Assembly: GCA_016342495.1 (NCBI GenBank)
Contig: JAEIOG010000008.1
Coordinates: 1-64,000, forward strand
Source of the DNA: Phycisphaerae bacterium
GTDB lineage: Bacteria > Planctomycetota > Phycisphaerae > Sedimentisphaerales > SM23-30
DNA: 64,000 nucleotides
Direction of reading: 5' to 3'
Shown: piece by piece, positions 5,871-26,564 of the stretch
How the letters are laid out: every line of letters starts with the position of its first letter
How positions within the stretch are numbered: position 1 is the stretch's first letter
Made by a program: the position numbers and the translations under genes
Notes under the pieces: model-generated
Database searches by the model: none
Seen by the model: only the letters and a program-made list of their open reading frames with translations
What the model was told of the DNA's origin: nothing

Positions 5871-5922
5871 AACTGCAGTCCAATAGAAAAGATTAACTCT
5901 AACTTACTTGCTTACTTTATTT

Positions 5923-7450: not shown

Positions 7451-7493
7451 ACAAAAAAAGGTATGTTATTCCTTTTGCAAAAAATAACATACC
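7451..7493 (-). terminator. Rho-independent terminator downstream of the flotillin-like gene
   Basis: 11-bp perfect stem GGTATGTTATT / AATAACATACC with a 12-nt loop. It is followed by a T7 run on the minus strand. Confidence 0.6.
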
Positions 7494-7535
7494 TCCATTT
7501 AACTTAAAATAAAATTGGCTGGCACTACCCCAAAA

Positions 7536-9525: not shown

Positions 9526-11445
9526 ATGAAAAATTTGATTTTTACTCTTATTCTCAGCATTATTTTTCTTAACAATTCTTTTAGTTTTGCCGCTTCCGAA
9601 CCAGATTTTCCCGGTAAAGTCTCCGATTTCCATGGATATGTCCGACATGACTTCCAATTCCAATCACACAATTGTATCATCGTCGAGCCCAAAACTCCAG
9701 CCGATGGCAATCCCTGGATTTGGCGGGCCCGCTTCTTTGGCCACGAACCTCAAACGGACAAATGTCTTTTGGCCCGTGGCTTCCACGTTGCTTTCATCGA
9801 TTGCCCCGACATGTTTGGCTCTCCCAATGCCGTCAAACTATGGGACGACTATTATAATTATCTGACCACCAAATTCAAATTCAATAAAAAACCCGCACTG
9901 GAGGGCATGAGCCGTGGCGGTTTATTTGTCTTTAATTGGGCCAAAGCCAACCCCGATAAGGTTTCCTGTATTTATGCCGATGCTCCCGTTTGTGATATCA
10001 GCAGTTGGCCCAGCTCTCAACGCAAAGTTTTATGGCAGGCCGCTCTCAAACAATATAATCTTACCGACCAAACCGTCGCCACCGCAAAAATTAATCCAAT
10101 AGACAATCTTGAACTCTTAGCTAAAGCTAAAGTCCCAATCCTTATCGTTGCAGGTGATGCCGACCAGGTCGTGCCTATCGAAGCTAATTCTTATATTTTC
10201 CGTGACCGTTACCAAAAACTCGATGGCCCCATCAAAATGATAGTAAAACCTGGCGTTGACCATCATCCCCATAGCCTTAAAGATCCAACCGAAATTGTAA
10301 AATTCATCGTTCAGCACACAAACGATTTAGACCGGATGTATTACATCCGTGACCAACTTCAAAACTCCCGCCTGAAATTCACCCGCGAAAAGAAGGGCAC
10401 CGTAGCCTTTCTGGGTGGCTCAATTACTTACAATCCCGGATGGCGGCCAATGGTTTGCGAATATCTTCAAAAAGAGTTTCCCGACACCGAGTTTACTTTC
10501 ATCGCTGCTGGCATCCCATCGCTTGGTTCTATCCCCGGTACCTTTCGCATGGATCGCGACATCCTTTCCAAAGGCAAAGTTGATCTGCTGTTTCAGGAAG
10601 CTGCCGTAAATGATAAAGTCAACAATCAGAATCCTGACCAGGTTACCTTCGCCATGTCCGGCATCGTTGAACATGCCCGCAGCGTCAATCCGGATATGGA
10701 CATCGTCTTTATGTACTTCGTTGATCCTGAAAAAATGAAATTTTACAATTCTGGCCAATCCTCACCGATTATCGATATTCATGAAAAAGTTGCCAGAAAA
10801 TACCATGTCAGCGGTATCAATCTGGCCCTGGAAGTTACCGACCGTATCAATACCGGCGAATTCACCTGGAAAGATGATTTTAAAAATCTCCATCCATCGC
10901 CATTTGGCCAAAAGATATATTTCAATAGCATCAAACGCTTCCTGGAACTGTGCTGGGCCAATCCCATTAAGTCATCTGACCGGATCATTGCCCATCAAAC
11001 CCCGCACACACCCAATTCATATAATCAGGCTCGGCTGGCCGATGTCCATGAAAACTGGCAGTCCGATGGTTTCAAAGTCGTCGAAAACTTCAAACCCACC
11101 GATGCCGCTACCCGCGATGGTTTTGTAAATATCCCTGTCCTGGAAGCCACTGAAACCGGCGCCGAACTTAAATACCAATTTAAAGGAAATGCCATTGGCC
11201 TGTTTGTCATTTGTGGCCCTGACGCCGGCAAAGCCCAGTATTCCATTGATGGCAAGCAATACCCCATTATCGATTTTTTTACACCATGGAGCCGTGGCCT
11301 TCATTTGCCTCGCGCCTATGTCTTAGCCGATGAACTCAGCGATGGCTCACATGAACTCATCTTAAAAATGATAGAAGACCAAAACCCAAGAAGCAAAGGC
11401 CACGCCTGCCGTATCGCTCATTTCCTGGTAAATTCCCCTAGGTAG
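9526..11445 (+). CDS. Secreted two-domain esterase with an N-terminal alpha/beta-hydrolase domain and a C-terminal SGNH/GDSL hydrolase domain (probable carbohydrate esterase)
   Basis: Signal peptide 'MKNLIFTLILSIIFLNNSFSFAASE'. 'LIVAGDADQVVP' is an alpha/beta hydrolase motif, and 'VAFLGGSITYNPGW' is the SGNH block-I GDS-like motif. Confidence 0.65.
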   Translation: MKNLIFTLILSIIFLNNSFSFAASEPDFPGKVSDFHGYVRHDFQFQSHNCIIVEPKTPADGNPWIWRARFFGHEPQTDKCLLARGFHVAFIDCPDMFGSPNAVKLWDDYYNYLTTKFKFNKKPALEGMSRGGLFVFNWAKANPDKVSCIYADAPVCDISSWPSSQRKVLWQAALKQYNLTDQTVATAKINPIDNLELLAKAKVPILIVAGDADQVVPIEANSYIFRDRYQKLDGPIKMIVKPGVDHHPHSLKDPTEIVKFIVQHTNDLDRMYYIRDQLQNSRLKFTREKKGTVAFLGGSITYNPGWRPMVCEYLQKEFPDTEFTFIAAGIPSLGSIPGTFRMDRDILSKGKVDLLFQEAAVNDKVNNQNPDQVTFAMSGIVEHARSVNPDMDIVFMYFVDPEKMKFYNSGQSSPIIDIHEKVARKYHVSGINLALEVTDRINTGEFTWKDDFKNLHPSPFGQKIYFNSIKRFLELCWANPIKSSDRIIAHQTPHTPNSYNQARLADVHENWQSDGFKVVENFKPTDAATRDGFVNIPVLEATETGAELKYQFKGNAIGLFVICGPDAGKAQYSIDGKQYPIIDFFTPWSRGLHLPRAYVLADELSDGSHELILKMIEDQNPRSKGHACRIAHFLVNSPR

Positions 11446-12022
11446 AAACAACTTCCACCATATTCATATAACACACATGTAGAGACAAGGCATGCCTTGT
11501 CTTTGACCAACCTTAAGGTGGCAAGGGTCCGCCAATAAGCGACCCCTTGGCCTGTATGCCGCCGTCAATGATGTTGTTAATCTTTCTGGATGGCTAATAA
11601 AATCTGCGCAATCCGCATGTGAGCAAGTTTATTTAGCGGCAAACCTAAAGTTATATTCGATATACACTTAACAAATGATTCATGCTAAAATTAAGTCTTC
11701 CGGGCTTGTAGTCACCAAATAACCATAAAAACCCAGCCCAACCAGTGATAATCAAAAACCAATTGCTTCAAAACAGGCTCTGCCAGCTTAAAAACCCACA
11801 AAACCATTTAAGTAATCATTAGCTCTTGCCCAATCAAATCTGCTCGATCCGTTAAAATTCGTGTCCTATTCTTATATTTTCCCCGCCACTAAAAAATCTC
11901 ACTCACATCCGCATTCTATATAAGTTATTTCACTAATTTTATACCAAATAATGCCCGATAAGAAATAATAACTATGTATCCCCGATATTTTTATCTCAGC
12001 AAATAAATGAAAGCAATTTATC

Positions 12023-14059
12023 ATGAAATCATTATCAAAAATTTTATTGTTGACTATAATTACCTTCTTATCATTTCCTGTTATTTCCCATGCTCAAAAC
12101 CGTTCCAGCTTGGAACTGATGTCCTTTGAACTTAATCGAATAGCCGGCGTTGAAACTATTAATTCAATTGCCGCCTTAGATCAGGGCCAGAAATTCCTTG
12201 ATTCACTCAATAGCAGTGAAACCTGGCTAACAGATCTGCTTGATAGCGGCCCGGTCCAAAATCCCAAACGCATACTCACAATGCTTCATCGTATCTGGCT
12301 GCAGGACAATTATATTGCCAATGATGATCTCAAACGTTCGTTTGCTACCGCATGTAGCCTGGCTATGGGTATGAATACCCGTCTGGACGAAGACTGGATG
12401 TTCAACCGTTATCAATATTTCCTCGATAGCTGGGACAATGGTCGACTCAATAAATGTTTCTCCGACCTTGCAACCTGGGAAAGGCGTTATATCGCCCGTG
12501 GCCCGCAATATTCCAGCTATTCCAGCGTAGAATCCCTGAAGTATCTCCAGCAGCGTATCTGTTTGCCTCGCAAAGATTATGTCGGGGCTTGTTGGCAGGC
12601 TCCTTATCGGGGCCATAACTGTTTTGGTGATAGCGTTCAGGGCCCCAAATATTATCAGCCTTTCCGCGGCTCCTTTTCCTGTGATCCAGAGATGGCAATT
12701 ACCGTTGGGGGTGTCTGTGGCGCTTTATCGAATCTTGGTACTGCCGCCGCTATCGCCAATGGCATTCCGGCTACTTCAATGGGCGAGCCGGGTCATTGTG
12801 CTTATGCCGTCAATACCGCCCCTGGCATTTGGACTCCCGCATATTCGCTTTCGTGGAAACGGGGCATGCATACATCTTTCTATCGTGGTACCTGGACTGA
12901 TCTTATGCTCGCCCAGGCTTGTTTTGAAAAACCCGATCTTGTCCATAAAGCCGCTAATCTCCAAAGGTTGGCCCATTGGAATGAAAGTCTGGGCAATATC
13001 AAAGATGCCGATCTTGCATTAGCTCAGGCAATTAAAACTCATCCGATGCACTATGCTATTTGGATTGACCGCGCCGAATTTGCCATCCGACATAAATTTG
13101 ATGCCAAATGGTGGAAAGCTTATCATGATGACATCCTTGAATTATTAGCTCCTGCTCATGAAGAACCCGCCTGGCATCTGCTCTCAAAGTATGTTTATGA
13201 CAATCTTACTACTAAAATGAGCAATGCCGCACGTACCGAAATATTCTTACAATATCTAAAGTCTTTTGATGATTTTGGAGCTGGCCGCTGGAATATCGAA
13301 TCTGCATGGTCCTGGATGACTGGCAAAGCTGGTGGCTCAAGCACTCAGAGAAAATTCCTTCGGCAGTTAGCCGATGCGACTATTACTTCCCCGGGACTGG
13401 GTGCTGCTTGTCTGGCCTGGGTTAAAAATTATTATGAAAAAGATGATCGGCAATGGCTGGAATTCCAGAATTGGCTTGTCGCCAGACTCGATAGTAATGG
13501 TGATGGTGCCGATAGTATCATCCGCCAACTGGGGCGTACCGCTATGCCGGCAGCCGCTAAACGTGGCGATCTTGCCTCCTATCAGGCTATTGGTAAACTT
13601 TGTTCCAGACTCTATAAGTCCACTGACACCAAAGGCATTGACCCATTTCCCGGCGAACTGCTAACCGAAGGCGGGGCGATGAATATATCTGGCATAGGTG
13701 AACATTATGATTCTCCAGAACAGCATTGGGGTGTCCTGAATATGCATGGCGGGGCATTGCACACTAATACCACAACCACACCTTGGGTCGAAGTGAAGCT
13801 TGGCAATTTTGGTCTGCTAAACGGAATTGTAATCCAGAATCGTCCTGGTGGTTTTATGTCACGTGCTAATGGTGCCCGTGTACTTGTCTCCACTGATGGT
13901 CAGGATTGGCAGCAGGTTGGCAAGCTCGAAGGGGCGAAACTTTTCTATCGCATTGACCTGAGCCAAACCAAACCTCAGGCTGGATATCTTCGCATCGAAC
14001 GCGATGGTCAATGCATGCACTTTGCCAGAATCTTAGCCTATGGCCAAAGAACCAACTAA
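12023..14059 (+). CDS. Secreted hypothetical protein with a C-terminal F5/8 type C (discoidin)-like domain; possible transglutaminase-like Cys/His core in the N-terminal half
   Basis: Signal peptide 'MKSLSKILLLTIITFLSFPVISHA'. The C-terminus 'VEVKLGNFGLLNGIVIQNRPGG...RVLVSTDGQDWQQVG' resembles discoidin. The 'GVCGALSNLG...GHCAYAV' reading is speculative. Confidence 0.5.
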   Translation: MKSLSKILLLTIITFLSFPVISHAQNRSSLELMSFELNRIAGVETINSIAALDQGQKFLDSLNSSETWLTDLLDSGPVQNPKRILTMLHRIWLQDNYIANDDLKRSFATACSLAMGMNTRLDEDWMFNRYQYFLDSWDNGRLNKCFSDLATWERRYIARGPQYSSYSSVESLKYLQQRICLPRKDYVGACWQAPYRGHNCFGDSVQGPKYYQPFRGSFSCDPEMAITVGGVCGALSNLGTAAAIANGIPATSMGEPGHCAYAVNTAPGIWTPAYSLSWKRGMHTSFYRGTWTDLMLAQACFEKPDLVHKAANLQRLAHWNESLGNIKDADLALAQAIKTHPMHYAIWIDRAEFAIRHKFDAKWWKAYHDDILELLAPAHEEPAWHLLSKYVYDNLTTKMSNAARTEIFLQYLKSFDDFGAGRWNIESAWSWMTGKAGGSSTQRKFLRQLADATITSPGLGAACLAWVKNYYEKDDRQWLEFQNWLVARLDSNGDGADSIIRQLGRTAMPAAAKRGDLASYQAIGKLCSRLYKSTDTKGIDPFPGELLTEGGAMNISGIGEHYDSPEQHWGVLNMHGGALHTNTTTTPWVEVKLGNFGLLNGIVIQNRPGGFMSRANGARVLVSTDGQDWQQVGKLEGAKLFYRIDLSQTKPQAGYLRIERDGQCMHFARILAYGQRTN

Positions 14060-14071
14060 AGGAATTGAAAT

Positions 14072-14992
14072 ATGAATAATCTCAAAAAAATTATAATACT
14101 TATCGCAATCGCTGTTTTAGCTTCAAATTCATGGGCTGGCGTATATTTCGCTAATTCTTATGAACAGGCATTTCAGGCAGCTAAAAAACATAACTCAATT
14201 GTCATTGTACTAGTCCATGGCAGCGATTGGAATGTCAAAGGCCAGAAAATCTATACCAGTTTATTTAAGACCAAAACTATCAATCGCTCTTCGGTGAAAG
14301 ATAATGTAGTTTTTACCGATGTCGATATTTTGCAATCGCCCTCGGAATTTCAAAAAACCAATAATGATCAACGTAACAAAGGTTTTAAACCTCAGGGTAT
14401 CCATTCATACCCTGCGATATGCTCTTATTTGCCTGATGGCACACTTCTAGCGGTAAAGCAGGGTCAGGACGTCCCTACTGAAGTTATAAAGGTGAACAAA
14501 ACAGTTATTACTTTAATAGAAGATTCTGCTAAATATCAAAACTTAAAAGCCACAGCCGACAAAGCTAACAAAGCTAAAGATACCAAGGCAGAACTTGCCG
14601 CTCTGACTGAATTAGCTCAATTACCGCTTAATCAACCGAAAGATATTCTCAAACGAATCAAAGAACTTGACCCGGCTGATACCGATGGCTTACAGGCGAG
14701 ATTGAGTTTTCCGCATTGGCAGAAACTTTTTGCTGATACTACCAGCAGAACTCAAAAAGGTCAGGGACCAGAAGTTGAAAAAGAACTAAATGAAATGCTG
14801 AAAAACAAAGTTTATACCAAAGAACAATTAGCTACAATTCATGTGGCTATTGGAATATGCCATCGTCATCAGGCCGGCCATGAAGCCCAGGCAGCGGTGG
14901 CATTTCAGCAGGCCGCCCAGATTGCTCCCGGTACTTTCCCGGCTGAAGTTGGGACTCGCTGCTATGAAGCTTGGTATAAGAAAACTAAATAA
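14072..14992 (+). CDS. Secreted hypothetical protein (306 aa)
   Basis: Signal peptide 'MNNLKKIIILIAIAVLASNSWA'. No family recognised. Confidence 0.45.
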   Translation: MNNLKKIIILIAIAVLASNSWAGVYFANSYEQAFQAAKKHNSIVIVLVHGSDWNVKGQKIYTSLFKTKTINRSSVKDNVVFTDVDILQSPSEFQKTNNDQRNKGFKPQGIHSYPAICSYLPDGTLLAVKQGQDVPTEVIKVNKTVITLIEDSAKYQNLKATADKANKAKDTKAELAALTELAQLPLNQPKDILKRIKELDPADTDGLQARLSFPHWQKLFADTTSRTQKGQGPEVEKELNEMLKNKVYTKEQLATIHVAIGICHRHQAGHEAQAAVAFQQAAQIAPGTFPAEVGTRCYEAWYKKTK

Positions 14993-15181
14993 TTTATGGC
15001 AATACCAAAAAAAAACATCAAGCTCCATTATCAAAGGGTTAGGATGTTTTGACGCTGGCGATTAATTTTGTGTAAATGTTGAAAAAATCGAGTCCCCAAA
15101 GTGCTCGAAAACGACATAAAATTGCACAAAATTACCGAAAATTACAAAAAATTACCAAAAAATAACATAAAAACCGAGCAA

Positions 15182-15208
15182 AAATGGGCGGTTTCGGGCC
15201 GCCCATTT
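15182..15208 (-). terminator. Bidirectional rho-independent terminator between convergent genes
   Basis: 10-bp perfect stem AAATGGGCGG / CCGCCCATTT with a 7-nt loop. It is flanked by T/A runs on both strands. Confidence 0.6.
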
Positions 15209-15222
15209 ACGTTTTTGTACTG

Positions 15223-17112
15223 TTACTTTACGGTTGGGTAAGTAATGGTTTTGCCTATGATTTTCCCATTTTGGCAGGTTACAACTTTTAGATCCTGAGC
15301 ATTTTTAGGAACGACTAAAGGCTTAGTGTACTGAGGATAAAAACCGTCAGGGTCAGCACCTTCGAAAGTGTAGTGGATAGTTAGTCCTTCTATTTCAGTA
15401 GAAAGGGTGATGATGGTTTGGTCATCTTTTTTGGTTGTCTTGAAAATGGGGTCGTAGATACTGCGGGCATACTTGATTTGACCGTAGTCCATTCGTTGGA
15501 AATGATTTTCTGCGCGGCTAACAAAATCTGGCCAGTTTTTATCTTCTTTTTGTGACCAGGCAGATTCTGCGATAGCTAAGCTTCGTGGCCAGGTCATATA
15601 TTGAGCATGTCGGAATTCAGAAATTTCTTCAGTCCATAAATTGCCTTGTATGCCCAGTATCAATTTTGCATCGATGCCATCCGGTACGGGTTCGAAATTA
15701 TAGGTATCGGTAAGTCGAGCCATATTATAAGTTTTGGGTTCGGCTGCCGGGTCACCTTGATACAGGTCAAGATAATAATAAGGTGAGGGTGTCATCACGA
15801 CTTCGTGGCCCATCTTGGCGGCTTTTATGCCACCGGCGGTGCCTCGCCATGACATGACCCGGGCGTTTGGAGCTAAGCCACCTTCGAGGATTTCGTCCCA
15901 GCCAATAAGTTTTTTGCCTTTGGAAGCAAGGATTTTTTCCATGCGTTTGATGAAGTAACTTTGCAGTTCATGTTCGTTTTTGATGTTATTATCTTTTTTG
16001 AATTGTTGACAGCGGGGGCATTTTGACCAGAAACCTTTGTGGGCTTCATCGCCACCGATATGGATATATGAATTTGGAAACAATTCTGCGATTTCGGCAA
16101 AGACATCATCGAGGAATTTATAGGTGAAGTCATTGCTGGGGCAGATAGTATTTTCGATTTGGCCATAGAATTTACTGCCTGGGTTAACGGTGAATGGTCC
16201 GCCACCGCAGGATAACTGAGGGTAAGCAGCCAGAGCGGCCATGGAATGGCCGGGAACATCGATTTCCGGAACGATAGTAATATGCCGTTTTGCTGCGTAA
16301 TCGACGATTTCACGGATTTCTTCCTGGGTATAGAAGCCACCATCGGTAGCTTTTTCATCGGGTTGGGGGGCATCAAAAGTCCACCAGTAGCCTTGGCGAG
16401 GAACACGGAAGGCGCCAATTTCGGTAAGTTTGGGATATTTTTTGATTTCGATACGCCAACCCTGGTCATCTGTTAGATGCCAGTGGAAGGTGTTGAATTT
16501 GTAGCGTGCCATCTGGTCGATGAAAGTTTTGACTTGTTCTTTTGTGTAGAAATGGCGACTGACGTCAAGCATGAGTCCGCGCCAGTCAAATCGTGGTGCA
16601 TCTGTGATCTCAACGCATGGTATGGTCCATTTTTTGTTTTTGATTATACTTTTAGATTCAATTTCCGGTGGTAAGAGCTGAAGTAAACTCTGGATAGCAT
16701 AGAAGGCACCTTGGGGGGAAGCAACTGTAATACCTATTTTTTCCGTGGAAACATCTAGTATATAGGCTTGTTCTTTTAAACTTCTTGATTGAAGTGCTAC
16801 ATTGTCCAGCAGAATAGAGTTTTTGGGAGTAGGGGTGTTATCCATGGATTTAGTGGCGATTTTGAGGTCAAAACCGGTAGCACGATTGAGTTGGCTGGCT
16901 AGATATTGGGCTTCAGAATTGAGAATTGAAGTATAGGTTAATATTTTGGTATCAGCATTAACCGTAAAAGAGCCGTTTTTTTCGCTGATAGAGTTGGGTT
17001 TAGGAATAACATTAATTTTCGCAAAAGTGCTGATAGAATTAAATAGTGACAGTGCGATAGCCGATATTATTACTGGTCGAGGAGCGAGTTTAATCATAAT
17101 TGCTTTCTCCAT
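15223..17112 (-). CDS. Beta-N-acetylhexosaminidase (glycoside hydrolase family 20), secreted
   Basis: Catalytic 'SYIHIGGDEAHKGFW' (H-x-G-G-D-E) motif of GH20. It has an N-terminal signal/TM segment and is 629 aa. Confidence 0.85.
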   Translation of the reverse strand: MEKAIMIKLAPRPVIISAIALSLFNSISTFAKINVIPKPNSISEKNGSFTVNADTKILTYTSILNSEAQYLASQLNRATGFDLKIATKSMDNTPTPKNSILLDNVALQSRSLKEQAYILDVSTEKIGITVASPQGAFYAIQSLLQLLPPEIESKSIIKNKKWTIPCVEITDAPRFDWRGLMLDVSRHFYTKEQVKTFIDQMARYKFNTFHWHLTDDQGWRIEIKKYPKLTEIGAFRVPRQGYWWTFDAPQPDEKATDGGFYTQEEIREIVDYAAKRHITIVPEIDVPGHSMAALAAYPQLSCGGGPFTVNPGSKFYGQIENTICPSNDFTYKFLDDVFAEIAELFPNSYIHIGGDEAHKGFWSKCPRCQQFKKDNNIKNEHELQSYFIKRMEKILASKGKKLIGWDEILEGGLAPNARVMSWRGTAGGIKAAKMGHEVVMTPSPYYYLDLYQGDPAAEPKTYNMARLTDTYNFEPVPDGIDAKLILGIQGNLWTEEISEFRHAQYMTWPRSLAIAESAWSQKEDKNWPDFVSRAENHFQRMDYGQIKYARSIYDPIFKTTKKDDQTIITLSTEIEGLTIHYTFEGADPDGFYPQYTKPLVVPKNAQDLKVVTCQNGKIIGKTITYPTVK

Positions 17113-17636
17113 AAAGGATTAGTGTAAATAACCTAATTTTAGTAAGGAAAGATTGATTTAAATATGAACAAAAGCATTATGGTTAAATAAAATCGCTTTT
17201 CAAGAGAAATTAATTTTATTTCGTAGAGGCTGGAAGGCCTTTAATTGCTATATATGAAAAGTAAGTTTAATAAAGACCTGGTGCTTATTGAATGAAAACT
17301 AGTTTGTGTGTATAGACGGCAAATTTTAAATATTTTTAAAAAAAATTGTAGCAGGTGCAGTCATAGTTATCTGCCTATTGTATAATTATTTACGAAAAAA
17401 TTAATTTACTACGCGAGCCAAAAATGCGAACTTTGGTACAGATGAAAATATTACTTGACGGTTGGCTAATATTGTAGTAAATTAGGCTTTAGGCCATACT
17501 CGGAGCAGAGAAACTCGCGTATGAGTTTAACTGCTTGTTGACAATGGGTTTATAGACTTGATTGAGAACCTACCTTAAGGCGGCACAACGCCGTAACTGA
17601 TGTATTAATACCACGTAGCTCTTCAGGAGAAAAAAG

Positions 17637-20600
17637 ATGTTATCTAAAAATAGTTTTATTTCCAAAAGACATTTTGCAATGGTTCTGTTGGCGTTTTTAG
17701 TGTTATTTGGCACTTTAAATGCGGAAATTACAGAAACCCAGGGTGATTGGGTAGAGCTAGGTTGGCGTTCGGCGTCAAGTGGTGGGGTGTCCTGGAATCT
17801 ATCTAACAATGCGGCAGAATCTACTATGGTATTAGGTCACGATGGTGATCCGATAGTATTTTGGGTAGAAGGTCCTGGGCAAAATGCCGGTGATAAAGGG
17901 GTAAATAAAACTCCGATTAATCAATATGCAACCTGTATTACTGAATTTGTTCAGCCATTGTATTATGAACACAGCTATGGATTTGAAGTTTATGGAATAG
18001 TAAATGCTCGTCAACATTGCGGCGACCTGGGCTGGTGGGATTTGCGAACAGGTTTGGGCGATGGTAATGGCTTGAATATATTAGGAACTCAGCTGGATGC
18101 AGCAGTGAAGCCTAATGGCGACATAGTTCTTTGTATGAAGGCAAATGGTAGTGTTGCCCAAGTTTATCTCTGGAATGGCAGCAATCTTGAGGATTTAGGA
18201 ATTGCCAGCGAAGGTGTGATAGACAGACCAAAAGTTGCAGTTGGTCCGACAGGAGAAATTTTTGTTTGCTATACAGCAATTCCCTGGGATGCACAGGGTA
18301 ATTTAGATTTTGAGCATACCGAGGTAGTAGTAAGAAAGTATACCTATAATTATACGGTAGACTCAGTGGGCGGTCCATCGGATGCGGATTTGGCCTGGGT
18401 AGAACTGCGTAATGCTGACATAGAAGATTTTACGGTTGAATGGAGCGGAGGGGTAAGTAATAGTGCGGGAGTGTCATTTGACCCTGCGATAGCAATCGAT
18501 GTTGATGGTTTGCCAGTAGTGGTTTGGACTGAAGTGGTAAGGCAGGGTAATGTCGAAGTTTTTGGTAAAAAATGGGATGGGCGTAACTGGAATGAAATCG
18601 GTTTGGGTTCAACAAGTGACCCGGATGGCGATTCAAATTTTGGTATCAGTTCTGACCCGACTCAGTCTTTGCAGCCTGATATTGCAATTACCGAAACAGG
18701 TAATTATATAGTTACATGGGTTAATTTTGGTGACTGGGCAAATAATTACTGGTCAAACCCGCAGGCAGCTGTTTATGTAAAGACTTTGTTTGTAAATTCG
18801 CAGGTTTGGGAAGAATATTCTGCTGGAAGTGCGACAGGATCAGGTATTGTTCCAGAGGGAGATACCTTAGGTGACCTTGCAGATGGTGAATTAGGTTTAG
18901 GCTGGTATTATGTTCCTGAGATAACTTTAGATAAAGATGGTTATCCATTGATTACCTTCGTCGGTTTTTGTATGCCAGAGCGTTTTGCTCATGATTTAGA
19001 TAATGATATGGTACCCGATTTTCCTGACTTGAGTTTTTATTGTATCAAGTATGATGGTGCCGGGTTCAATATGATATATGACAATCGTCGTGGTTCGGCG
19101 TCGGCTACGGTAGGTTCATCGTGGTCACCTTCGGCGATAATAAATGATAATGATGAACTTATTATTGCTTATGCAGAAGGAACGCGTCTGTTTAGTAATG
19201 AGATTTTTGTACAGAAATGGGATGCGGTAGAAGAGACCTGGATTGAACATGGTCGTGGTTCAATGAGTTTTGGTAATGATTTTGTAGGTGGCTATCCGTT
19301 TGGCGAATATCCGGTAGTTATTGGCGATCATTTCCGATATAACCCAATGTTTGATCCAGAATTCTTCATGGAAAGTAAAAGTCAGATCGCAATGGTGGAT
19401 TATAGCAATGATCCTACTGGCAAGATGGATGTATTGTTGGCAATCCCGGGTACACTGTATGAATATATGGTAGCAGATGATCCGATACCAAATGCCGGTA
19501 AGATGTATGTCTATCGTCGTGATACAGGCAAATGGAGCGATGAGCTACAAATAGATTTTGGTCGTACATTTGATCTGGTAAATTCACCGGAGAATTCATT
19601 TGAGATTGAAGGGTCGGCATTATTAGCTTATCTTGACGATGAGGATGGATTGCCATACGTTTATGAATTTCGTAATGGTGCCTGGAATTTGCTGGGTGGC
19701 GGGGCGGCAAGTGCCGATGCTGGAAATACTGAGATAGCCGGAACAGGTATCGCTACCGGTATCAGTGCACAAGTGGGACCAAATGGCCAGATATTATTAG
19801 CTTATCTGGCATCGGCTGACGCTGATACAGATGTAGTGAAGACACGTTTATGGGATCCGGGCAGTAGTTCATGGATAGATGCCGGTGATGGCGAATTGCC
19901 AAATGCGGGTGCTTTGAATGTGGCATATTATGATCATTTTGATATGCATAATTTTGGTTTATTGGATGAAGATGCTGATTTTGCAAGAGCCGATGATGTT
20001 GGTTCTATTACAGCCGGTGCGATAAATGCCCAGACAGGTGCAGAAGTTCATCCGTTTTATAGATGGGGCAATTGGGTTCAGTGGCGTAGAGGTTCACTGA
20101 TTGAAGAGCTAATTGGGGATTTGGCAGGGGCCGCAATAGTAGGTCCAGATGGAGCAAATCCACCATGGGGACCAGGAAGATATAATGAAAGCTTGATTAC
20201 AATAGAAAAAGTTGAAGGTGGTGATGATACGCAAGGGCCAGGCATGATAGGAAATGGCTGGGGTGCGGATCAGGCATTGAAAGTATCGTTTGAAATACCT
20301 GGCACTGCAGCAGGCCCTGGTCATAATATTGCAGTATCAGATGGAGCGGTATTGGCAGCGCGGATAACACGCGGTTTTAAGATGGCAGCGGAAGACCATG
20401 TAATGGTTGAGATGTGTTATGCTTTTGATACGGATGACTTTTTTACAGCGAATGGTGAGCCAGAAGAAGATGGCACTGTAGTAGTGAATAAGCGTCCACT
20501 GATTACCGGTAATTTATATATTTATGGTTTGATTGACGAAGTTGATGGCGATGTAACAACAGCAAAATGGCTGGATGGTGATCCGTCAACTCCGATAGAT

Positions 20601-23600
20601 TTTTTAGATGATAATGGTGATCTTTATGATTTTCCATATCCGGGGCTAGAGCCAATAGATTGGTGGCCAGCGTTTCATGATTCATATTATTATCATCGCA
20701 AGACATTGGATACCAGTGAAATGGGTATGGGTAAACTGGGGATTGGCGATCATACTTTGACCTTTATTCCAGCATTGATAATGGAAAGGACTGAAGATGA
20801 GCCAACCAAAGTAGATGGGCTAGTAGATTTTCTGGCAAGCGTTGGCGCAGTTACAATCACTGAATATCTTGAAGGTCGAGATGCAGATCCGGATGTCGAT
20901 GGTGATGCGGACGTAGCCGCACATGAACAGCGTGCATCTATCGCATTTGATAATATCGCAGTATATCAGCGTGTAGTTAAAACTGATATAGATAATAGTA
21001 ATGGTGCTCCAGATGAGTCGTTCTTTGATGAAGCCACAGACTTTGATAATGTTGATCCGCTAGTTGTTACTGACTGGGAAGATGATGGTGGCGACGGTGT
21101 GGCAGTTTATGATGCAGCTGAAGGCAATGATGATAATGGTTCAGTAAAGATAAGCCTGACAGATGGAGATATAAATGAGAGTCTTGTTCATACAATAAGT
21201 AAAACTATAACCGTTCCAGATGGTCATAATTATGTTGAAGTCGAGATGGCAGTTCGGGTGCTGATGACTGGCTTGGGTACAAGAGATGTAGTTCAGGTGG
21301 CAGTTGCCGAAGATGTTTATTTACAAGGCTTAGTAGGCGCTGCAGTGCAACCAGGGACTTTGGTTGACGGCAATTATGAATATCTGGAATTTAGTGGTAT
21401 AGATGCCGGGACAAATATTGATACTGATTGGCTGGAAGTAAAACTGAACAGGGTGTTTGAACTAGCACCAGGTGATCATAAGATGGACATTCTGGTAAGC
21501 CTGATGGATGTTGATTTTGTAGATGATGATGGGACTGTGGATGTATGGGTGGATGATATTAAGTTCAATTTCTATCCAGGTGTTACAACTTATGAGGCAA
21601 TGCCATATGGTAGCGATGCAAATCTAAATAATCATGTAGGTGGAAGCACTAACCTCACAACCGGCAGACCGGATTATGGTAAGAATCGTCGGGAATGTTA
21701 CCGTATTCATGTAGAACATGATGTGGCACAGCCTGCAGCGATACAATCGCTTAAGATAGCAGAAGTAGTCCAGGGCGGTAAAGGGCCAATGGCAGTAGGT
21801 TTCCGTTATAGATTAGATAGTGACAATGGTATGGCCGATGGTCTAAGTGGTATCAAGGTTAGAATCGGTGACAGAGCATATAATGTTGCTGGCGAAGATG
21901 ATTTTCTGACATTGCCAGATTGGTGGGGAGGCACAGGTCTATTCTGGAGCAATAGCGAAATTACATCTCCGCCATTCCCATTGGCATATGCATATTTTGT
22001 AATAAATCCTGAGGTAGTGGATGCCGGGACATACGATGTTTCTATTGAATTGACATTGGATGGCGGCGGTTTCGCTGACTTGTGGATTGATGATATTTTT
22101 GTCGCAAGTACCAAGAAGGGATCACCAGAGAAGATATTGGCGACATTGTCGGCGGTAACAGAAACCGGTACAGGGCAAACCAGAAGGTTTGCGATAGGTG
22201 GAACCTATAGAGCTGATGATTTCTGGTGTCATGATGATGGTTATAGAACAAGTCTTGACCAGGAAAATCCTCAAGATGATGAATTCCATCAGACAGACGG
22301 AAGACCTGATGAGAACAATGACGGTATTGCTGGTGGTGATACGACATCCGATCCTTATCCGGATGGATATTTGCGATCTCTGAGTCCTTATGTCGGTGAT
22401 GAACATAGATCAGTATGTATTTATGAGCTGATAGATAATGAATGGCAATTGTATGGTGATCGCATAGTCGAGACCATTGATGTTGATTTTCTGGGCATAA
22501 GAGTAGCGGGCAGTTATTTCCCGATGCCAAGGCCAGAGCTTCAAGCGATAGCGGGAATAACAATTGATAAATCTCAATGGTTATGGACAGCAACCCAGCA
22601 TTATACATCGGTATGGTCGCCAGATCCATTAAATGGAAATCCATTCCGTTATGCGGTTCATCCCTATCAGTTGACACCTCCGGCTCTTACAGAATTGAAT
22701 CTGGAAATATTTGGCTGGGAGCCAGTAGGTGAGATTGATCAGCTTGGCTGGGTGCCACATTGGGTAAATAAAGGATTTGAGCCTGCCGGACATAATGTAG
22801 GTGCTAATACCCGTTATCAATTTATTGATATGGCGACAACCCATGAGAATAAATTTGTATTGGGCTGGACCGAATATGATGACTGGACAGGATTTACTGA
22901 TGTTAAATTTAACTATATGCCCGATATTGCTGATAATCTAGACAATACTGATTTTGGACGTTTGTATAGCGGCAATGAAGAATTGCAAGATGCAAGATGG
23001 GATCCAACGCTGTTATCAGATATAGAGATCAAGCCGGGTGGATCGCCAATAGTATCATTCTGGATGTCCGAGATGTTGTTGCATGGAATACGCGAATTTG
23101 TTGAGTATTCAGATATGCCTTTCATGCAAGTCGAAGATGCATCCGGCAATGCGACGAACAATGTTCTTGAGCTGGGTGATAGTGTCAATGAGATTACTTA
23201 TGCAACCTTTGTGATATCAAATAAATATCCGACACAGGTTCCGCCATTGGATGATACTGAACTGGGTCAATTAGTAATATATGGCATAGAGTTTGGCGGA
23301 TTTGGCCAACTGGATGGAAGTCAGTTCGATATAATTGGCTCGCCAACATTCCCGATACGGCTAGATGGCGGAGAACGTCATACATTTACGGTTCGATTTG
23401 ATTCTAATGGAGTGCCAGCGGGTCAGTATGATGGAGCATTGGTTATTCACAGTAATTCTGTTGTGCATCCAACACATCCGTTTGGTCAGTTTTATGAATT
23501 GAATATTAGTGCGATGGTATTGAACCGCGGTATTGTTGATATGTCGGTAAATAGTCAATATGTTGAGTTTGAAGAAAAGCATGTGATAGGCAATATACCG

Positions 23601-26564
23601 GCGGCAGATGATCCTGCCCGTGAAGTCAAGCAGGTATTGGTACGTAATATTGGTACAGAAGATTTGACGATTTTCGAATGGCTCTTTAGCGGGACAGGCT
23701 TTGAAGTTCAGTCAGCTTATGTTGGAGTCAAGACCAATAATTCAGTTATATATGGCGCGGCTCTGGCGTCAACAAAGAATATTGTTGGTACGGCAGACGA
23801 TGTGGTATTGACGCCAGGTGATTATTTGAAATTGAATATTATATTCTCACCAACAGAATCAAGAGATTATAATGACACTCTGTTTATTCACAGCAGTGAC
23901 CCGGGTAATCCATATATGGCATCACGATTAAAAGGTTTGGCCTATACCGGAGCGGATATGGAGATAACCGTTGATGATGGTAATACCTCATACGGAATTG
24001 ATTTGTGGGAACCTGAGATAGACCTTGGCAGTGTGGTCAAAGGTGAAAGCAAGACAGTTACGGTAAATATTAATAATGTTGGTACCTCGTTATTAACATT
24101 AAGCGATGTGCGTAATTTGATACCAATAGATGAAGTGACATTTGATCCGGACAATATGGAAAATATAGAAATTGATCCTGGTCAGTCATTTAGCTTTGAT
24201 ATGACATTTTCTCCGGCACCAAATCATGATCCAGATGACAATTTAGTGATCGAGATGGAAAGTCTGGTTTTGGTGGCTAATGATGTTGAAGATACGGATT
24301 TGAGATTCTTGAAGATAAATGTGTTAGCTTTGGCGGTGCCGAAGATACCTGTTATCAGGATAATTGATCCTGCGACAAATGAAGAAATGACTTCTCTGGA
24401 CTTTGGAATAGTCAATGCTGAGCAATCAGTTGATAAGTCATTTTTGATTAAGAATATAGGCGGAAAGACCGCAACGATAACCGGTTGGAGATTCAGCCGT
24501 GGCACAGGAGCTTATACATTTTCACCAATTAACCCGGTAGGAGTAAATCCTGATGCTGGTATTGATGAAGATCCGGTATTGCTGCCAAATGAATCGGTAC
24601 TGGTTTCAATAACATTCTTGTGGGCAAATGCAGGAATTATTCGTGAAAATGTGATTGTAGACTATAAGCCAGGCGATAAATTTGAAGATGGTGATATGTC
24701 TAATACTCCGACAGTATTGATTTTGCGAGCTGAGGTAACTGACAGAGAATTGGCAGTTACTGATACTCAAGGGGAATCCAGCGATAATCTGATAAACTTT
24801 GGCAAGGTAGGCCAGGGCCAGAGTGCAGGCCAGAATTATTATATTACCCTGTCGAATCTGGCATTGTCACCGGTGACGGTAACAGGCTGGAGCTATACAG
24901 GCGACGCGGGTATAAATGTGATGCCTTTTAGCAATGAAGTAGTGCTGGCATATGGTGAGACTTATATGATTGAAGTCGGATTTGCACCTGAGACATTAGG
25001 TCTAATTAATGGAGCAGTCAGAATTGTATCTAATAGTCCGACCGCTACCGAACAGTCGCCATGGCTGATAACCATACGTGGCGAAGGGGTATTTCCTGGT
25101 CAGGTGAGTTTTGCACCGGCAGCTTTAGATTTTGGGCAGGTTCCACTAGGTGACAGCAGCACAGAAACGCTGGTGTTGACTAATACCGGTAATGCCAATA
25201 TATATGTTAAAGATATTGTGAGTGAATCTACTTATTTCAAGGTTAGCACTCTGGCAATTACTGATGCTAATGGATACTATGTAGTACCTGCAGGGAATTC
25301 TATCAGTTTTGATGTGAAGTTTGTGGCATCGAATCCATTTGATGCAACAGTGAATTTAAGCGTTGTAACTGACAATATTTCTGATGGAGCTGTGAACAAT
25401 CTTATTCCGATGACAGCGCAGACAAAAACAGTGATAATTGGCGACAATTTAACAGTCAATGACGGCAGTGGCCACACATTGAAGATTGTGGTTAAAGGTG
25501 GCGGTTTCGCAACAGTTGAAACAGTCAGCGCGACAAATAATGATATTGCTTCGATAGCTCTTGTCGGTACTACAATGAAGTCATCAGTTTATATCAGTGG
25601 CCCAGGTGTAGAATCCCACGTCGGCCAGATCATAGGTGGAACAATTAAGAATCTTGTTCTTAAGAAGATAACCCTTGATGGTGACATTGACAATGACGGC
25701 GTTCAAGACAGTGCTAATACAATTGAATTTGGTCATATTGATGGGACGATAACACTTGGTGATGTAGTAGACGGAGCAGACATTAATATTCTTAGTGTCA
25801 ATGCCAAGGGTACTACCATAAAGGCTGGTTCGATTGGATATGGAACAGATATGACCATCAATGGTAATATCAAGACCTTATCTTGTGACGAATTTGGTGA
25901 TGGCATGATTGAAGCATCATCGTTGAAGTCATTTAAGGTAGGCAAAGGTGATTGCCTTGCCAGTTTGAATGTTGCAGGTGATGTAGGTACAGTGTCAATA
26001 GGTGGTGGCCGTGTAGACGGTGATTATATTATTGGCGGTGAGATCAAGACATTCAATGCCAAGAAAGCTGTGTTTACGGGTATTATTAAGGCTGAAGAGA
26101 TTGGATCAGTGAGCTGTTATAATCTTGGAAGTGATGATGCTTCGGCGATGATTGCTACTGGAGGTTCTATCAAGAAGGTATCGGTAGGTAAAAATGTACA
26201 GGATAGTCATATCCTGGCAGGTTTTGACCTTGGAGCTAATAATGTGCTGGGCGGCGGCGATGATTCGCTTCGGTCAGGTGGCATTGTTAAATCAGTGAGC
26301 GTCAAAGGTAGCTTCCAGAACAGCTATGTGATGGCTGGCTTGATGACTAATGCAGCGGGCAACTTTGATGTCTTTGGCAATAATCCTCCAATGGACAGTC
26401 GCACCGGTGAAGTTGGTAAAGTTAAGCTTGGCTATGTCATTATTGACAATGCTGGTGTAGGCTTTGGTATTGGTTCACATTCTAAACTTGGCAGTGCCAA
26501 GGCAGGCCGAGATAAGTTGAGTGCTGGTGATAAACTAGGCGACTTCAGTGTTGGGCTATACTAA
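17637..26564 (+). CDS. Giant secreted protein (2975 aa), Asp/Gly/Val-rich with many predicted beta-rich repeat domains (adhesin-like)
   Basis: Signal peptide 'MLSKNSFISKRHFAMVLLAFLVLFGTLNAE' and an uninterrupted 8.9-kb ORF. The Ig-like repeated motifs read 'T..TL.I.N.G...L.I' and the C-terminus is beta-helix-like 'G.I..V.V.G'. No recognisable sorting signal. Confidence 0.7.
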   Translation: MLSKNSFISKRHFAMVLLAFLVLFGTLNAEITETQGDWVELGWRSASSGGVSWNLSNNAAESTMVLGHDGDPIVFWVEGPGQNAGDKGVNKTPINQYATCITEFVQPLYYEHSYGFEVYGIVNARQHCGDLGWWDLRTGLGDGNGLNILGTQLDAAVKPNGDIVLCMKANGSVAQVYLWNGSNLEDLGIASEGVIDRPKVAVGPTGEIFVCYTAIPWDAQGNLDFEHTEVVVRKYTYNYTVDSVGGPSDADLAWVELRNADIEDFTVEWSGGVSNSAGVSFDPAIAIDVDGLPVVVWTEVVRQGNVEVFGKKWDGRNWNEIGLGSTSDPDGDSNFGISSDPTQSLQPDIAITETGNYIVTWVNFGDWANNYWSNPQAAVYVKTLFVNSQVWEEYSAGSATGSGIVPEGDTLGDLADGELGLGWYYVPEITLDKDGYPLITFVGFCMPERFAHDLDNDMVPDFPDLSFYCIKYDGAGFNMIYDNRRGSASATVGSSWSPSAIINDNDELIIAYAEGTRLFSNEIFVQKWDAVEETWIEHGRGSMSFGNDFVGGYPFGEYPVVIGDHFRYNPMFDPEFFMESKSQIAMVDYSNDPTGKMDVLLAIPGTLYEYMVADDPIPNAGKMYVYRRDTGKWSDELQIDFGRTFDLVNSPENSFEIEGSALLAYLDDEDGLPYVYEFRNGAWNLLGGGAASADAGNTEIAGTGIATGISAQVGPNGQILLAYLASADADTDVVKTRLWDPGSSSWIDAGDGELPNAGALNVAYYDHFDMHNFGLLDEDADFARADDVGSITAGAINAQTGAEVHPFYRWGNWVQWRRGSLIEELIGDLAGAAIVGPDGANPPWGPGRYNESLITIEKVEGGDDTQGPGMIGNGWGADQALKVSFEIPGTAAGPGHNIAVSDGAVLAARITRGFKMAAEDHVMVEMCYAFDTDDFFTANGEPEEDGTVVVNKRPLITGNLYIYGLIDEVDGDVTTAKWLDGDPSTPIDFLDDNGDLYDFPYPGLEPIDWWPAFHDSYYYHRKTLDTSEMGMGKLGIGDHTLTFIPALIMERTEDEPTKVDGLVDFLASVGAVTITEYLEGRDADPDVDGDADVAAHEQRASIAFDNIAVYQRVVKTDIDNSNGAPDESFFDEATDFDNVDPLVVTDWEDDGGDGVAVYDAAEGNDDNGSVKISLTDGDINESLVHTISKTITVPDGHNYVEVEMAVRVLMTGLGTRDVVQVAVAEDVYLQGLVGAAVQPGTLVDGNYEYLEFSGIDAGTNIDTDWLEVKLNRVFELAPGDHKMDILVSLMDVDFVDDDGTVDVWVDDIKFNFYPGVTTYEAMPYGSDANLNNHVGGSTNLTTGRPDYGKNRRECYRIHVEHDVAQPAAIQSLKIAEVVQGGKGPMAVGFRYRLDSDNGMADGLSGIKVRIGDRAYNVAGEDDFLTLPDWWGGTGLFWSNSEITSPPFPLAYAYFVINPEVVDAGTYDVSIELTLDGGGFADLWIDDIFVASTKKGSPEKILATLSAVTETGTGQTRRFAIGGTYRADDFWCHDDGYRTSLDQENPQDDEFHQTDGRPDENNDGIAGGDTTSDPYPDGYLRSLSPYVGDEHRSVCIYELIDNEWQLYGDRIVETIDVDFLGIRVAGSYFPMPRPELQAIAGITIDKSQWLWTATQHYTSVWSPDPLNGNPFRYAVHPYQLTPPALTELNLEIFGWEPVGEIDQLGWVPHWVNKGFEPAGHNVGANTRYQFIDMATTHENKFVLGWTEYDDWTGFTDVKFNYMPDIADNLDNTDFGRLYSGNEELQDARWDPTLLSDIEIKPGGSPIVSFWMSEMLLHGIREFVEYSDMPFMQVEDASGNATNNVLELGDSVNEITYATFVISNKYPTQVPPLDDTELGQLVIYGIEFGGFGQLDGSQFDIIGSPTFPIRLDGGERHTFTVRFDSNGVPAGQYDGALVIHSNSVVHPTHPFGQFYELNISAMVLNRGIVDMSVNSQYVEFEEKHVIGNIPAADDPAREVKQVLVRNIGTEDLTIFEWLFSGTGFEVQSAYVGVKTNNSVIYGAALASTKNIVGTADDVVLTPGDYLKLNIIFSPTESRDYNDTLFIHSSDPGNPYMASRLKGLAYTGADMEITVDDGNTSYGIDLWEPEIDLGSVVKGESKTVTVNINNVGTSLLTLSDVRNLIPIDEVTFDPDNMENIEIDPGQSFSFDMTFSPAPNHDPDDNLVIEMESLVLVANDVEDTDLRFLKINVLALAVPKIPVIRIIDPATNEEMTSLDFGIVNAEQSVDKSFLIKNIGGKTATITGWRFSRGTGAYTFSPINPVGVNPDAGIDEDPVLLPNESVLVSITFLWANAGIIRENVIVDYKPGDKFEDGDMSNTPTVLILRAEVTDRELAVTDTQGESSDNLINFGKVGQGQSAGQNYYITLSNLALSPVTVTGWSYTGDAGINVMPFSNEVVLAYGETYMIEVGFAPETLGLINGAVRIVSNSPTATEQSPWLITIRGEGVFPGQVSFAPAALDFGQVPLGDSSTETLVLTNTGNANIYVKDIVSESTYFKVSTLAITDANGYYVVPAGNSISFDVKFVASNPFDATVNLSVVTDNISDGAVNNLIPMTAQTKTVIIGDNLTVNDGSGHTLKIVVKGGGFATVETVSATNNDIASIALVGTTMKSSVYISGPGVESHVGQIIGGTIKNLVLKKITLDGDIDNDGVQDSANTIEFGHIDGTITLGDVVDGADINILSVNAKGTTIKAGSIGYGTDMTINGNIKTLSCDEFGDGMIEASSLKSFKVGKGDCLASLNVAGDVGTVSIGGGRVDGDYIIGGEIKTFNAKKAVFTGIIKAEEIGSVSCYNLGSDDASAMIATGGSIKKVSVGKNVQDSHILAGFDLGANNVLGGGDDSLRSGGIVKSVSVKGSFQNSYVMAGLMTNAAGNFDVFGNNPPMDSRTGEVGKVKLGYVIIDNAGVGFGIGSHSKLGSAKAGRDKLSAGDKLGDFSVGLY

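Follow-up and report, generated by a model that had tools for sequence, protein, structure and literature searches.

An origin-type strand-composition switch in Phycisphaerae DNA: rearrangement junction or replication origin

Gene content and layout of the locus

The window analysed here is a 64,000-nucleotide stretch of DNA from a Phycisphaerae bacterium, in which two arms of opposite strand composition meet across a short series of genes and AT-rich spacers (Table 1). The right arm opens with a gene for a protein of 2975 amino acids bearing Ig-like repeats, and its coding length lies mostly on the plus strand. On the left and on the right of the switch, the G-rich strand is the one that bears most of the genes.

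Table 1. Features of the two arms and of the interval between them (skew values refer to GC skew; GC3, third codon positions on the coding strand).
Feature	Coordinates	Strand	Remarks
Left arm	1-11445		Plus strand C-rich, skew -0.16; 9 of 10 genes on the minus strand
Left-arm minus-strand genes	1-11445	-	Include umuDC, methylase, folP, HAD, pgsA, rimO and Band7
S9/GDSL hydrolase gene	9526-11445	+	Sole plus-strand gene of the left arm; lagging-type GC3 skew, -0.53
577-bp non-coding spacer	11446-12022		GC 38%, skew -0.28, left-arm composition; no DnaA box
Discoidin (F5/8 type C) domain protein, 678 aa	12023-14059	+	First module gene; total skew -0.03
306-aa protein	14072-14992	+	Second module gene; weak thioredoxin-like match; neutral skew
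230-bp spacer between convergent genes	14993-15222		GC 35%, own skew approximately 0; contains the change point at 15,180
Phased A-tract array	15108-15180	+	Eight A-tracts, 10-11 bp phasing
Hairpin	15182-15208		12-bp stem with an A-run and a T-run on its flanks
GH20 beta-N-acetylhexosaminidase, 629 aa	15223-17112	-	Right-arm, lagging-type composition
524-bp AT-rich spacer between divergent genes	17113-17636		GC 32%, skew +0.22
Right arm	17637-47000		Plus strand G-rich, +0.22 overall, up to +0.33 (500-bp windows)

The discoidin gene and its downstream neighbour form a conserved, portable two-gene module that is neutral in skew and sits exactly at the switch. The same two genes adjoin each other in Anaerohalosphaera lusitana and in GCA_028282905.1, where the flanks of the module are entirely different and no skew switch is present. 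Its non-coding flanks show no conservation in relatives, with only the two-gene module being kept. The best relatives of the GH20 protein belong to the Chitinophagaceae (47-57% identity), and a scan of genome contigs matched only homologues of Bacteroidota type. The loci of these homologues have no neighbouring genes in common with the window.

The spacers on either side of the GH20 gene had been described in the original prediction as AT-rich and without obvious genes, and both are, at 35% and 32% GC with no plausible gene in either. The A-tract array in the shorter of the two has the core AAAATTAC at 15128, 15138 and 15148, and is reported by Tandem Repeats Finder with a period of 10 and 5.8 copies. 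No other run of at least four phased A-tracts occurs within the 64 kb, and the array was not found downstream of the module in relatives. The adjacent hairpin looks like a bidirectional intrinsic terminator serving both convergent genes. A permissive scan placed a CrcZ-like RNA over the A-rich array and the terminator at 18.9 bits, below the gathering score of 95, and this match is regarded as chance. The 577-bp spacer carries a perfect 20-nt palindrome (11483-11502) and a 25-nt direct repeat with copies at 11591 and 11827.

Size, position and polarity of the switch

The strand-composition switch at this locus is real and sharp. In 2-kb windows, the GC skew of the plus strand ranges from -0.07 to -0.21 across 1-12 kb, is approximately 0 at 12-15 kb and reaches +0.16 to +0.31 at 15-31 kb, remaining positive until approximately 52 kb. 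Base counts give a skew of -0.16 for positions 1-11,445 (G 2047, C 2829; z = -11.2), -0.06 for 11,446-15,222 and +0.22 for 15,223-47,000 (G 8278, C 5285; z = +25.7). The non-coding DNA also changes sign, from -0.28 (11446-12022) to +0.22 (17113-17636). Patches of atypical skew occur elsewhere in the window at 2.8-3.7 kb, 35.6-36.3 kb and 51.7-57.4 kb.

The flip in sign of the plus-strand composition was predicted correctly (-0.16 on the left, +0.22 on the right). Its predicted interval, 14,992-17,637, was not upheld, as the sign change lies instead within 11,446-15,222. A likelihood change-point fit places a single switch at 15,180, and a fit with two change points places them at 12,300 and 15,300, separated by a plateau of skew -0.009. 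The cumulative G-C minimum falls at 14,673. As the GH20 gene and the spacer at 17.1-17.6 kb are already of right-arm composition, the switch lies to the left of most of the predicted interval. The 524-bp spacer was ruled out as the switch point by its own skew of +0.22, which is of right-arm type.

Third codon positions show what the skew is tied to. Read on the plus strand, the GC3 skew of left-arm genes is negative whichever way they are transcribed, and that of right-arm genes is positive, again in both orientations. The plus-strand genes of 9.5-15.0 kb had been called C3-rich, which is true of the S9/GDSL hydrolase gene (-0.53), mildly so of the discoidin gene (-0.20) and barely so of the 306-aa gene (-0.08). 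The expected G3-richness of the minus-strand genes at 0-9 kb holds to a varying degree, with coding-strand values from 0.00 to +0.29. To the right, the GH20 gene is C3-rich as stated (-0.53 on its coding strand, equal to +0.53 on the plus strand), and the giant gene (17637-26564) is G3- and T3-rich as stated (GC3 skew +0.23; T3 exceeds A3, AT3 skew -0.22). Six right-arm minus-strand genes have GC3 skews of +0.37 to +0.58 when oriented to the plus strand. Across both arms, lagging-strand genes lie between -0.37 and -0.58 and leading-strand genes mostly between +0.1 and +0.67, values that match those of relatives.

As the sign of GC3 skew is common to both orientations within each arm, the skew is tied to the DNA strand and not to transcription or gene orientation. 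A skew driven by transcription or codon usage is essentially refuted by this independence. The first codon positions of the giant gene and its neighbour are very G-rich (+0.52 and +0.57, respectively), which inflates the total skew. The polarity of the switch, from negative to positive, is that of an origin on the premise that the leading strand is the one with G>C. This origin-type polarity, claimed in the original prediction, was borne out, and the switch is linked to the replication strand.

Both arms carry one genome signature. Strand-symmetrised tetranucleotide frequencies of the left arm correlate with those of right-arm segments at r = 0.84-0.95, compared with 0.83-0.92 among the right-arm segments themselves. 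The right arm is matched far better by the left arm in reverse complement (0.78-0.87) than by the left arm as it stands (0.36-0.71).

Search for origin hallmarks and comparison with relatives

DnaA boxes were searched for in strict form, in relaxed form and with up to two mismatches. No TTATCCACA box, the motif of E. coli type, was found with at most one mismatch in the spacers at 9069-9525, 11446-12022, 14993-15222 and 17113-17636, the last two of which had been put forward as the places to look. Two-mismatch matches to TTATCCACA in the candidate spacers occur at the chance-level density of the background. The relaxed box TTWTNCACA occurs three times in the 64 kb against 8.2 expected, with none within 8 kb of the switch. 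Neither dnaA nor dnaN, whose location had been proposed as a check, was found among the 34 non-overlapping open reading frames (ORFs) of at least 150 aa (Pfam and NCBIfam scans), covering 15 kb to the left and 49 kb to the right. No parS site was found at up to three mismatches, and RNA searches gave no tRNA and no Rfam family at gathering thresholds. The densities of GATC and GANTC, and the over-represented k-mers of the four spacers, were negative or at chance level.

The candidate spacers are AT-rich (32-38% GC), and in a nearest-neighbour ranking their stability is no lower than that of many other promoter regions of the window. The A-tract array falls outside the 12 least stable windows of 60 nt or 100 nt. 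A cluster of TTATCCGCA/TGCGGATAA boxes with 21-bp tandem repeats at 56.7-58.2 kb was considered as an alternative origin. There is no sign change of skew there, and the boxes track duplicated genes, so the cluster was rejected. The literature searched yielded no description of an oriC or DnaA box of the Planctomycetota.

The surroundings of rimO in three complete relatives (ENA ERZ21862267 contig_9, ERZ21862665 ctg8816c and ERZ21862645 ctg38569c) show no usable synteny with the window and no skew switch within 10 kb, a weak test of conserved position since the relatives are distant (RimO 50-76% identical). In the closest relative found (RimO 76% identical), a different gene lies immediately upstream of rimO, on a contig of only 2.8 kb. 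A RimO search of JGI data returned no relative closer than 56% identity. The orientation-independent GC3 pattern is also present in three relatives. As the relatives share a very strong skew of replication type, skew can be read within the clade as a dependable indicator of replication. In relative L082, rimO is part of a 20-kb block on the C-rich strand, and the skew of this block is fully equilibrated (GC3 -0.35 to -0.73). The G-rich strand instead carries rimO, together with the neighbours that share its orientation, in L081 and L083. This difference is evidence that block inversions persist in the clade.

Possible causes of the switch

The most likely cause, put forward tentatively, is a rearrangement or inversion junction. 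Such a junction would join two stretches of one chromosome that had long been replicated in opposite directions, with the DNA left of approximately 12 kb retaining the composition of a leftward fork and that right of approximately 15.2 kb the composition of a rightward fork. A block of at least 12 kb could have been inverted or translocated, with the junction marking one of its ends. The surroundings would be variable and made up of accessory genes, the portable two-gene module would now lie at the join, and on this reading the locus would be something other than the chromosomal origin. The original prediction had offered an origin or an inversion breakpoint, and the breakpoint is at least as likely as the origin. 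Of that prediction, the switch, its link to the strand and its polarity stand; the search it proposed for DnaA boxes was negative, no dnaA or dnaN was found, and the 524-bp spacer is excluded as the site.

Evidence counted for a rearrangement is that the strand-linked switch is strong on both arms and that the arms share a genome signature. The neighbourhood is counted as variable on four grounds: the Bacteroidota affinity of GH20, the differing flanks of the module, the differing gene upstream of rimO, and the lack of synteny or a switch near rimO in the three complete relatives. The locus resembles junctions of inversions or rearrangements within a replichore, which appear in complete genomes as local reversals of skew (Chen et al. 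2020, PMC7111523), in its abrupt change of polarity, its lack of origin hallmarks and its variable accessory setting, and the clade tolerates inverted blocks, as in L082. It differs from them in having no flanking inverted repeat, IS element or rRNA operon, in that neither arm shows signs of partial re-equilibration, and in that no partner junction lies in the 64 kb.

Several observations count against a rearrangement. No IS element, transposase, integrase, tRNA or long repeat was found at the junction, where all repeats are 25 nt or shorter, and the only dispersed repeat nearby is a palindrome of 20-25 nt. As both arms are equilibrium-like and match relatives, an inversion could only have happened very recently, measured against the time that skew takes to re-equilibrate. 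A true origin, in contrast, predicts such arms without any assumption of recency. The partner breakpoint, with the terminus polarity expected of it, does not occur in the window.

It has been noted that origin inflection points typically hold a small repeat array and often lie near dnaA (Chen et al. 2020, PMC7111523). The small repeat array at the inflection point here is origin-typical in this sense and counts against rearrangement. In Omnitrophota, a related PVC phylum, dnaA lies at the origin defined by skew in complete genomes (bioRxiv 10.1101/2023.11.21.568195).

A non-canonical oriC of a Phycisphaerae lineage, lying within 11,446-15,222 and sending out diverging forks, is possible but doubtful. 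The site would most plausibly be the 230-bp spacer, where the phased AAAATTAC array lies, or else the 577-bp spacer, and it would be unlinked to dnaA and devoid of E. coli-type DnaA boxes. Such an origin would account for the polarity, for the strong, equilibrium-like skew that both arms keep up to the junction, for the preference of genes for the G-rich strand on either side and for the flip of the non-coding DNA from -0.28 to +0.22. No other phased A-tract or tandem array of this kind exists in the window, and this one lies at the best change point. Relatives have the same very strong replication-type skew. In these respects the locus is like the DnaA-dependent oriC of E. coli, B. subtilis and Caulobacter, where the top-strand skew passes from negative to positive, genes show a divergent leading-strand preference, and the inflection lies in AT-rich, non-coding sequence bearing a small repeat array.

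Unlike such an oriC, the locus has no DnaA-box cluster, indicator gene, parS site or outstanding unwinding element, and its spacer lies between convergent genes. Several findings were counted against an origin: the candidate spacers lack a DnaA box at up to one mismatch and TTWTNCACA is absent within 8 kb; dnaA, dnaN and parS were not found in the window; the spacers are not the least stable DNA of the window; and the best change point falls between convergent gene ends, in a spacer that carries a terminator. In addition, the flanking genes are accessory, partly foreign and unconserved in relatives, and a random 64-kb window would hold oriC approximately 1-2% of the time, assuming a genome of approximately 4 Mb.

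Some origins are poor in recognisable DnaA boxes, including those of Borrelia, some cyanobacteria and endosymbionts. The evidence for these came from whole replicons or from experiments, and in many cases dnaA or dnaN is still adjacent. The present locus is like them in being inferred from skew alone and in having no canonical boxes, and is known here from a 64-kb fragment. A more specific version, namely a dnaA-unlinked origin of Sedimentisphaerales-like Phycisphaerae without canonical boxes, whose core would be the 10-bp-phased AAAATTAC array between the convergent genes, is unlikely. In that version the array is described as intrinsically bent, AT-rich DNA.

It is improbable that the switch is a misassembly in which two regions of one genome were joined in the wrong relative orientation. 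The source is a short contig (76,045 bp) of an uncultured metagenome-assembled genome (MAG), and the shared signature of the arms fits a join within one genome. Skew inversions inside a replichore can mark misassemblies, RefSeq genomes included, and these occur at long perfect inverted repeats (Chen et al. 2020, PMC7111523), whereas no repeat longer than approximately 25 nt exists at 11.4-15.3 kb. Moreover, every gene in the interval is intact, the pair formed by the discoidin and 306-aa genes is a natural unit in other genomes, and there are two compositional boundaries (approximately 12.3 and 15.3 kb) in place of a single abrupt join. A switch without replication meaning, as a by-product of gene orientation, codon usage or the amino-acid composition of a few large genes such as the giant gene, together with horizontally acquired patches, would fit the G-rich first positions of the giant gene and its neighbour and the atypical patches elsewhere, but is very improbable in view of the GC3 sign common to both orientations (right minus-strand genes +0.37 to +0.58, left plus-strand gene -0.53), the same signs in non-coding spacers and the same pattern in three relatives.

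The locus is a polarity junction of an ordinary kind, and a GC-skew polarity switch is in itself textbook. Were it an origin, the Planctomycetota, in which replication and division are little understood, would offer a rare case of a bacterial oriC that has neither recognisable DnaA boxes nor linkage to dnaA. An origin unlinked to dnaA would imply unusual initiator recognition or unwinding in the Planctomycetota. Should the preferred rearrangement, or a misjoin, be the cause, the practical value of the switch would be to flag a point of the contig to check against the reads. The very strong strand skew of the clade (0.2-0.3) makes such junctions detectable even on short contigs.

Size and position of the composition switch

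The GC skew of the plus strand is -0.07 to -0.21 by window over 1-12 kb, approximately 0 over 12-15 kb and +0.16 to +0.31 over 15-31 kb, with positive values persisting to ~52 kb. The original prediction had read such a sign change by eye, and it is upheld by base counts, third-codon-position (GC3) skew and non-coding spacers. Oriented to the plus strand, the GC3 skew of left-arm genes is 0.00 to -0.29 on the minus strand and -0.53 for the plus-strand S9/GDSL hydrolase gene. On the right arm it is +0.37 to +0.58 for minus-strand genes (n = 6) and +0.13 to +0.67 for most plus-strand genes. As the sign is the same for both gene orientations on each arm, the bias depends on the DNA strand rather than on transcription, and an artefact of gene orientation or codon usage is refuted. 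Spacer skew is -0.28 at 11446-12022 and +0.22 at 17113-17636; farther right, most spacers fall between +0.16 and +0.52. Most genes sit on the G-rich strand on both sides of the switch and, given G>C on the leading strand, its polarity is that of diverging forks.

A single-switch likelihood fit places the change point at 15,180, inside the 230-bp spacer 14993-15222. When two change points are fitted, they fall at 12,300 and 15,300, separated by a level stretch (skew -0.009); the cumulative G-C minimum lies at 14,673. The S9/GDSL gene (9526-11445, +) and the GH20 gene (15223-17112, -) each have a coding-strand GC3 skew of -0.53, fully “lagging”, though they face each other. These values, together with the left-arm composition of spacer 11446-12022 and the right-arm composition of spacer 17113-17636, confine the switch to 11,446-15,222. 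Thus, of the proposed interval 14992-17637, the 230-bp spacer is retained, while the 525-bp spacer (17113-17636) is excluded as switch point by its already right-arm composition. The switch is thereby upheld and narrowed to 11.4-15.2 kb, with the 230-bp spacer at its centre.

Compositional segments and features of the window
Feature	Position	Strand	Properties
Left arm	1-11,445		skew -0.16, z -11.2 (base counts)
Switch interval	11,446-15,222		skew -0.06, z -2.5 (base counts)
Right arm	15,223-47,000		skew +0.22, z +25.7 (base counts)
Discoidin/F5-8 type C protein	12023-14059	+	678 aa, GC3 skew -0.20
306-aa protein	14072-14992	+	weak thioredoxin-like match, GC3 skew -0.08
Phased A-tract array	15108-15180		eight A-tracts, 10-11 bp phase, core AAAATTAC x3
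43-nt duplication	55306-55390
Inverted repeats, ~294 nt	55385-55678 and 57714-58007		78% complementary
Tandem paralogous genes	56044-56670 and 56758-57384		208 aa each, flanked by the ~294-nt inverted repeats
21-bp tandem array	58069-58194		six copies

The discoidin module and its surroundings

The switch interval holds a two-gene module, neutral in skew in both genes, whose discoidin protein is identical to MBI9016104.1. The same pair, at the same spacing, is found in Anaerohalosphaera lusitana CP019791.1 (64% and 46% identity) and in GCA_028282905.1 (66% and 53%); in both, the flanking genes are wholly different and no skew switch occurs at the module. The module is therefore a portable unit, with a composition equilibrated to neither arm. 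With 64-66% identity, the discoidin protein is better conserved than RimO, a housekeeping protein that reaches at most 60% in every relative found except one; this suggests lateral spread of the discoidin protein among PVC bacteria. The conserved unit of Sedimentisphaerales spans 12023-14992 here, and 10001-12991 and 10001-12994 at the loci L084 and L085, with a second protein of ~306-310 aa. A homologue of the discoidin protein, 58% identical, occurs in a Kiritimatiellae MAG.

The neighbourhood is of accessory type and includes the GH20 gene, a 2975-aa Ig-repeat protein and a bifunctional hydrolase. Among 185,000 species genomes, the best relatives of the GH20 beta-N-acetylhexosaminidase are in Chitinophagaceae and other Bacteroidota (47-57% identity), not Planctomycetota, suggesting that the gene crossed between phyla long ago. 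At the third codon position, its skew is fully adapted to the local strand. RimO (5923-7323) is 100% identical to MBI9016101.1, which lies on the same 76,045-bp contig as MBI9016104.1. For the nearest relatives, those whose RimO exceeds 60% identity, the only sequences are contigs of 2.8-4.7 kb, and RimO of complete-genome relatives is only 50-53% identical. The closest relative carries a different gene upstream of rimO, and no skew switch lies within 10 kb of rimO in three complete relatives. Judged from these loci, the neighbourhood appears not to be conserved.

A near-identical 18-nt motif, ACC[A/T]ACCTTAAGG[T/C]GGCA, occurs in direct orientation at 11505-11522 and 17567-17584. The two copies hold the only two CCTTAAGG sites of the window and bracket a 6-kb block of the module and GH20; the pair may be coincidental, represent a site of shared regulation, or be the scar of an insertion. 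Intergenic DNA also holds three dispersed copies of a 20-25-nt palindrome (AGACAAGGCATGCCTTGTCT and variants; 11483-11502, 55790-55814, 57892-57918), which resembles a REP element or terminator.

Other features of the window

The region 55200-58500, a patch of near-zero skew, has a complex repeat structure that includes 20-nt GTGCAGGCTCAGCCTG repeats. Its 208-aa paralogues have no Pfam match and each is followed after ~22 nt by TTATCCGCA. The region may be a mobile or invertible cassette; it was rejected as an origin candidate because the skew sign does not change there. The C-rich, lagging strand also encodes a full-length member of the EF-G family (46713-48809), whose skew is equilibrated (coding GC3 -0.37). 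Highly expressed translation factors are not usually found there, so this gene is probably a second EF-G paralogue. At the left edge, a umuD-umuC pair (70-1209) includes a umuC ORF of just 233 aa, which may be truncated. Two N6/N4 DNA-methylase genes (2819-3718 and 49430-50386) lack an obvious restriction partner; the former, with a skew of zero, may have arrived recently.

Origin or rearrangement

Studies have reported that dnaA lies at the skew-defined origin in complete genomes of Omnitrophota, a related PVC phylum (bioRxiv 10.1101/2023.11.21.568195), and that the origin inflection is often near dnaA, typically with a small repeat array (Chen et al. 2020, PMC7111523). Proximity to dnaA fails here, and only the phased A-tract array could count as the repeat array. 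Neither dnaA nor dnaN, whose location the original prediction had named as a check, nor parAB or other indicator genes are among the annotated genes of the window. A DnaA-box search of 14992-15223 and 17113-17637 had been proposed as well. TTATCCACA with ≤1 mismatch is absent from all four spacers of 9-17.7 kb (9069-9525, 11446-12022, 14993-15222, 17113-17636), and two-mismatch matches are at background density. Only three matches to the relaxed consensus TTWTNCACA lie in the window, at 23.4, 23.9 and 39.3 kb, where 8.2 would be expected. A search of the window found no parS-like site, the spacers have no over-represented k-mers except the A-tract repeat, and other DNA in the window is less stable than the candidate spacers.

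The module and GH20 converge on the 230-bp spacer with their 3′ ends. The A-tract array of this spacer is the sole one of its kind in the 64 kb, and relatives lack it downstream of their copies of the module. After the array comes a hairpin (12-bp stem and T-runs) that looks like a bidirectional terminator. A sub-threshold Rfam match of 15126-15218 to the CrcZ sRNA (18.9 bits, E = 0.07, gathering score 95) is probably chance. The array might nevertheless work as RNA and not as DNA, either in the form of an A-rich 3′ UTR or as a protein-sponge sRNA.

The dual reading of the switch as origin or inversion breakpoint is only partly supported, since the switch is real but every origin-specific test that was run came out negative. 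A chromosomal rearrangement junction has a little under an even chance, and part of the total probability is given to none of the named explanations. Rearrangement is plausible in this clade. In one complete relative (L082, 1-21557; ENA ERZ21862665 ctg8816c), rimO belongs to a 20-kb block that occupies the C-rich strand, shows fully equilibrated GC3 skew (-0.35 to -0.73) and looks like an old block inversion. The rimO loci of two other relatives, L081 and L083, have this gene and the neighbours that share its orientation on the G-rich strand. Nonetheless, the junction has no IS element, tRNA or integrase, and fresh within-replichore inversions are presumably rarer per genome than a single origin. 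As both arms have equilibrium-like skew, only a recent inversion would fit, while a true origin would account for the pattern with no further assumption.

This full equilibrium may favour a non-canonical oriC two- to three-fold, yet such an origin remains unlikely. A bacterial oriC lacking both dnaA linkage and DnaA boxes has a joint probability of roughly 5-10% from general oriC architecture. A misjoin within one genome is quite improbable, as the junction has none of the long inverted repeats from which such errors arise. A chimera between genomes is unlikely: strand-symmetrised tetranucleotide correlations between the left arm and right-arm segments (r = 0.84-0.95) resemble those among right-arm segments (0.83-0.92), and turning the left arm into its reverse complement greatly improves its match to the right arm.

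A GC-skew switch is a known kind of genomic feature, described here in a new genome. The strand skew of this clade, 0.2-0.3, is at the high end of values reported for bacteria. The same very strong skew, independent of gene orientation, is seen in three relatives; it characterizes the clade and is well suited to marking the direction of replication.
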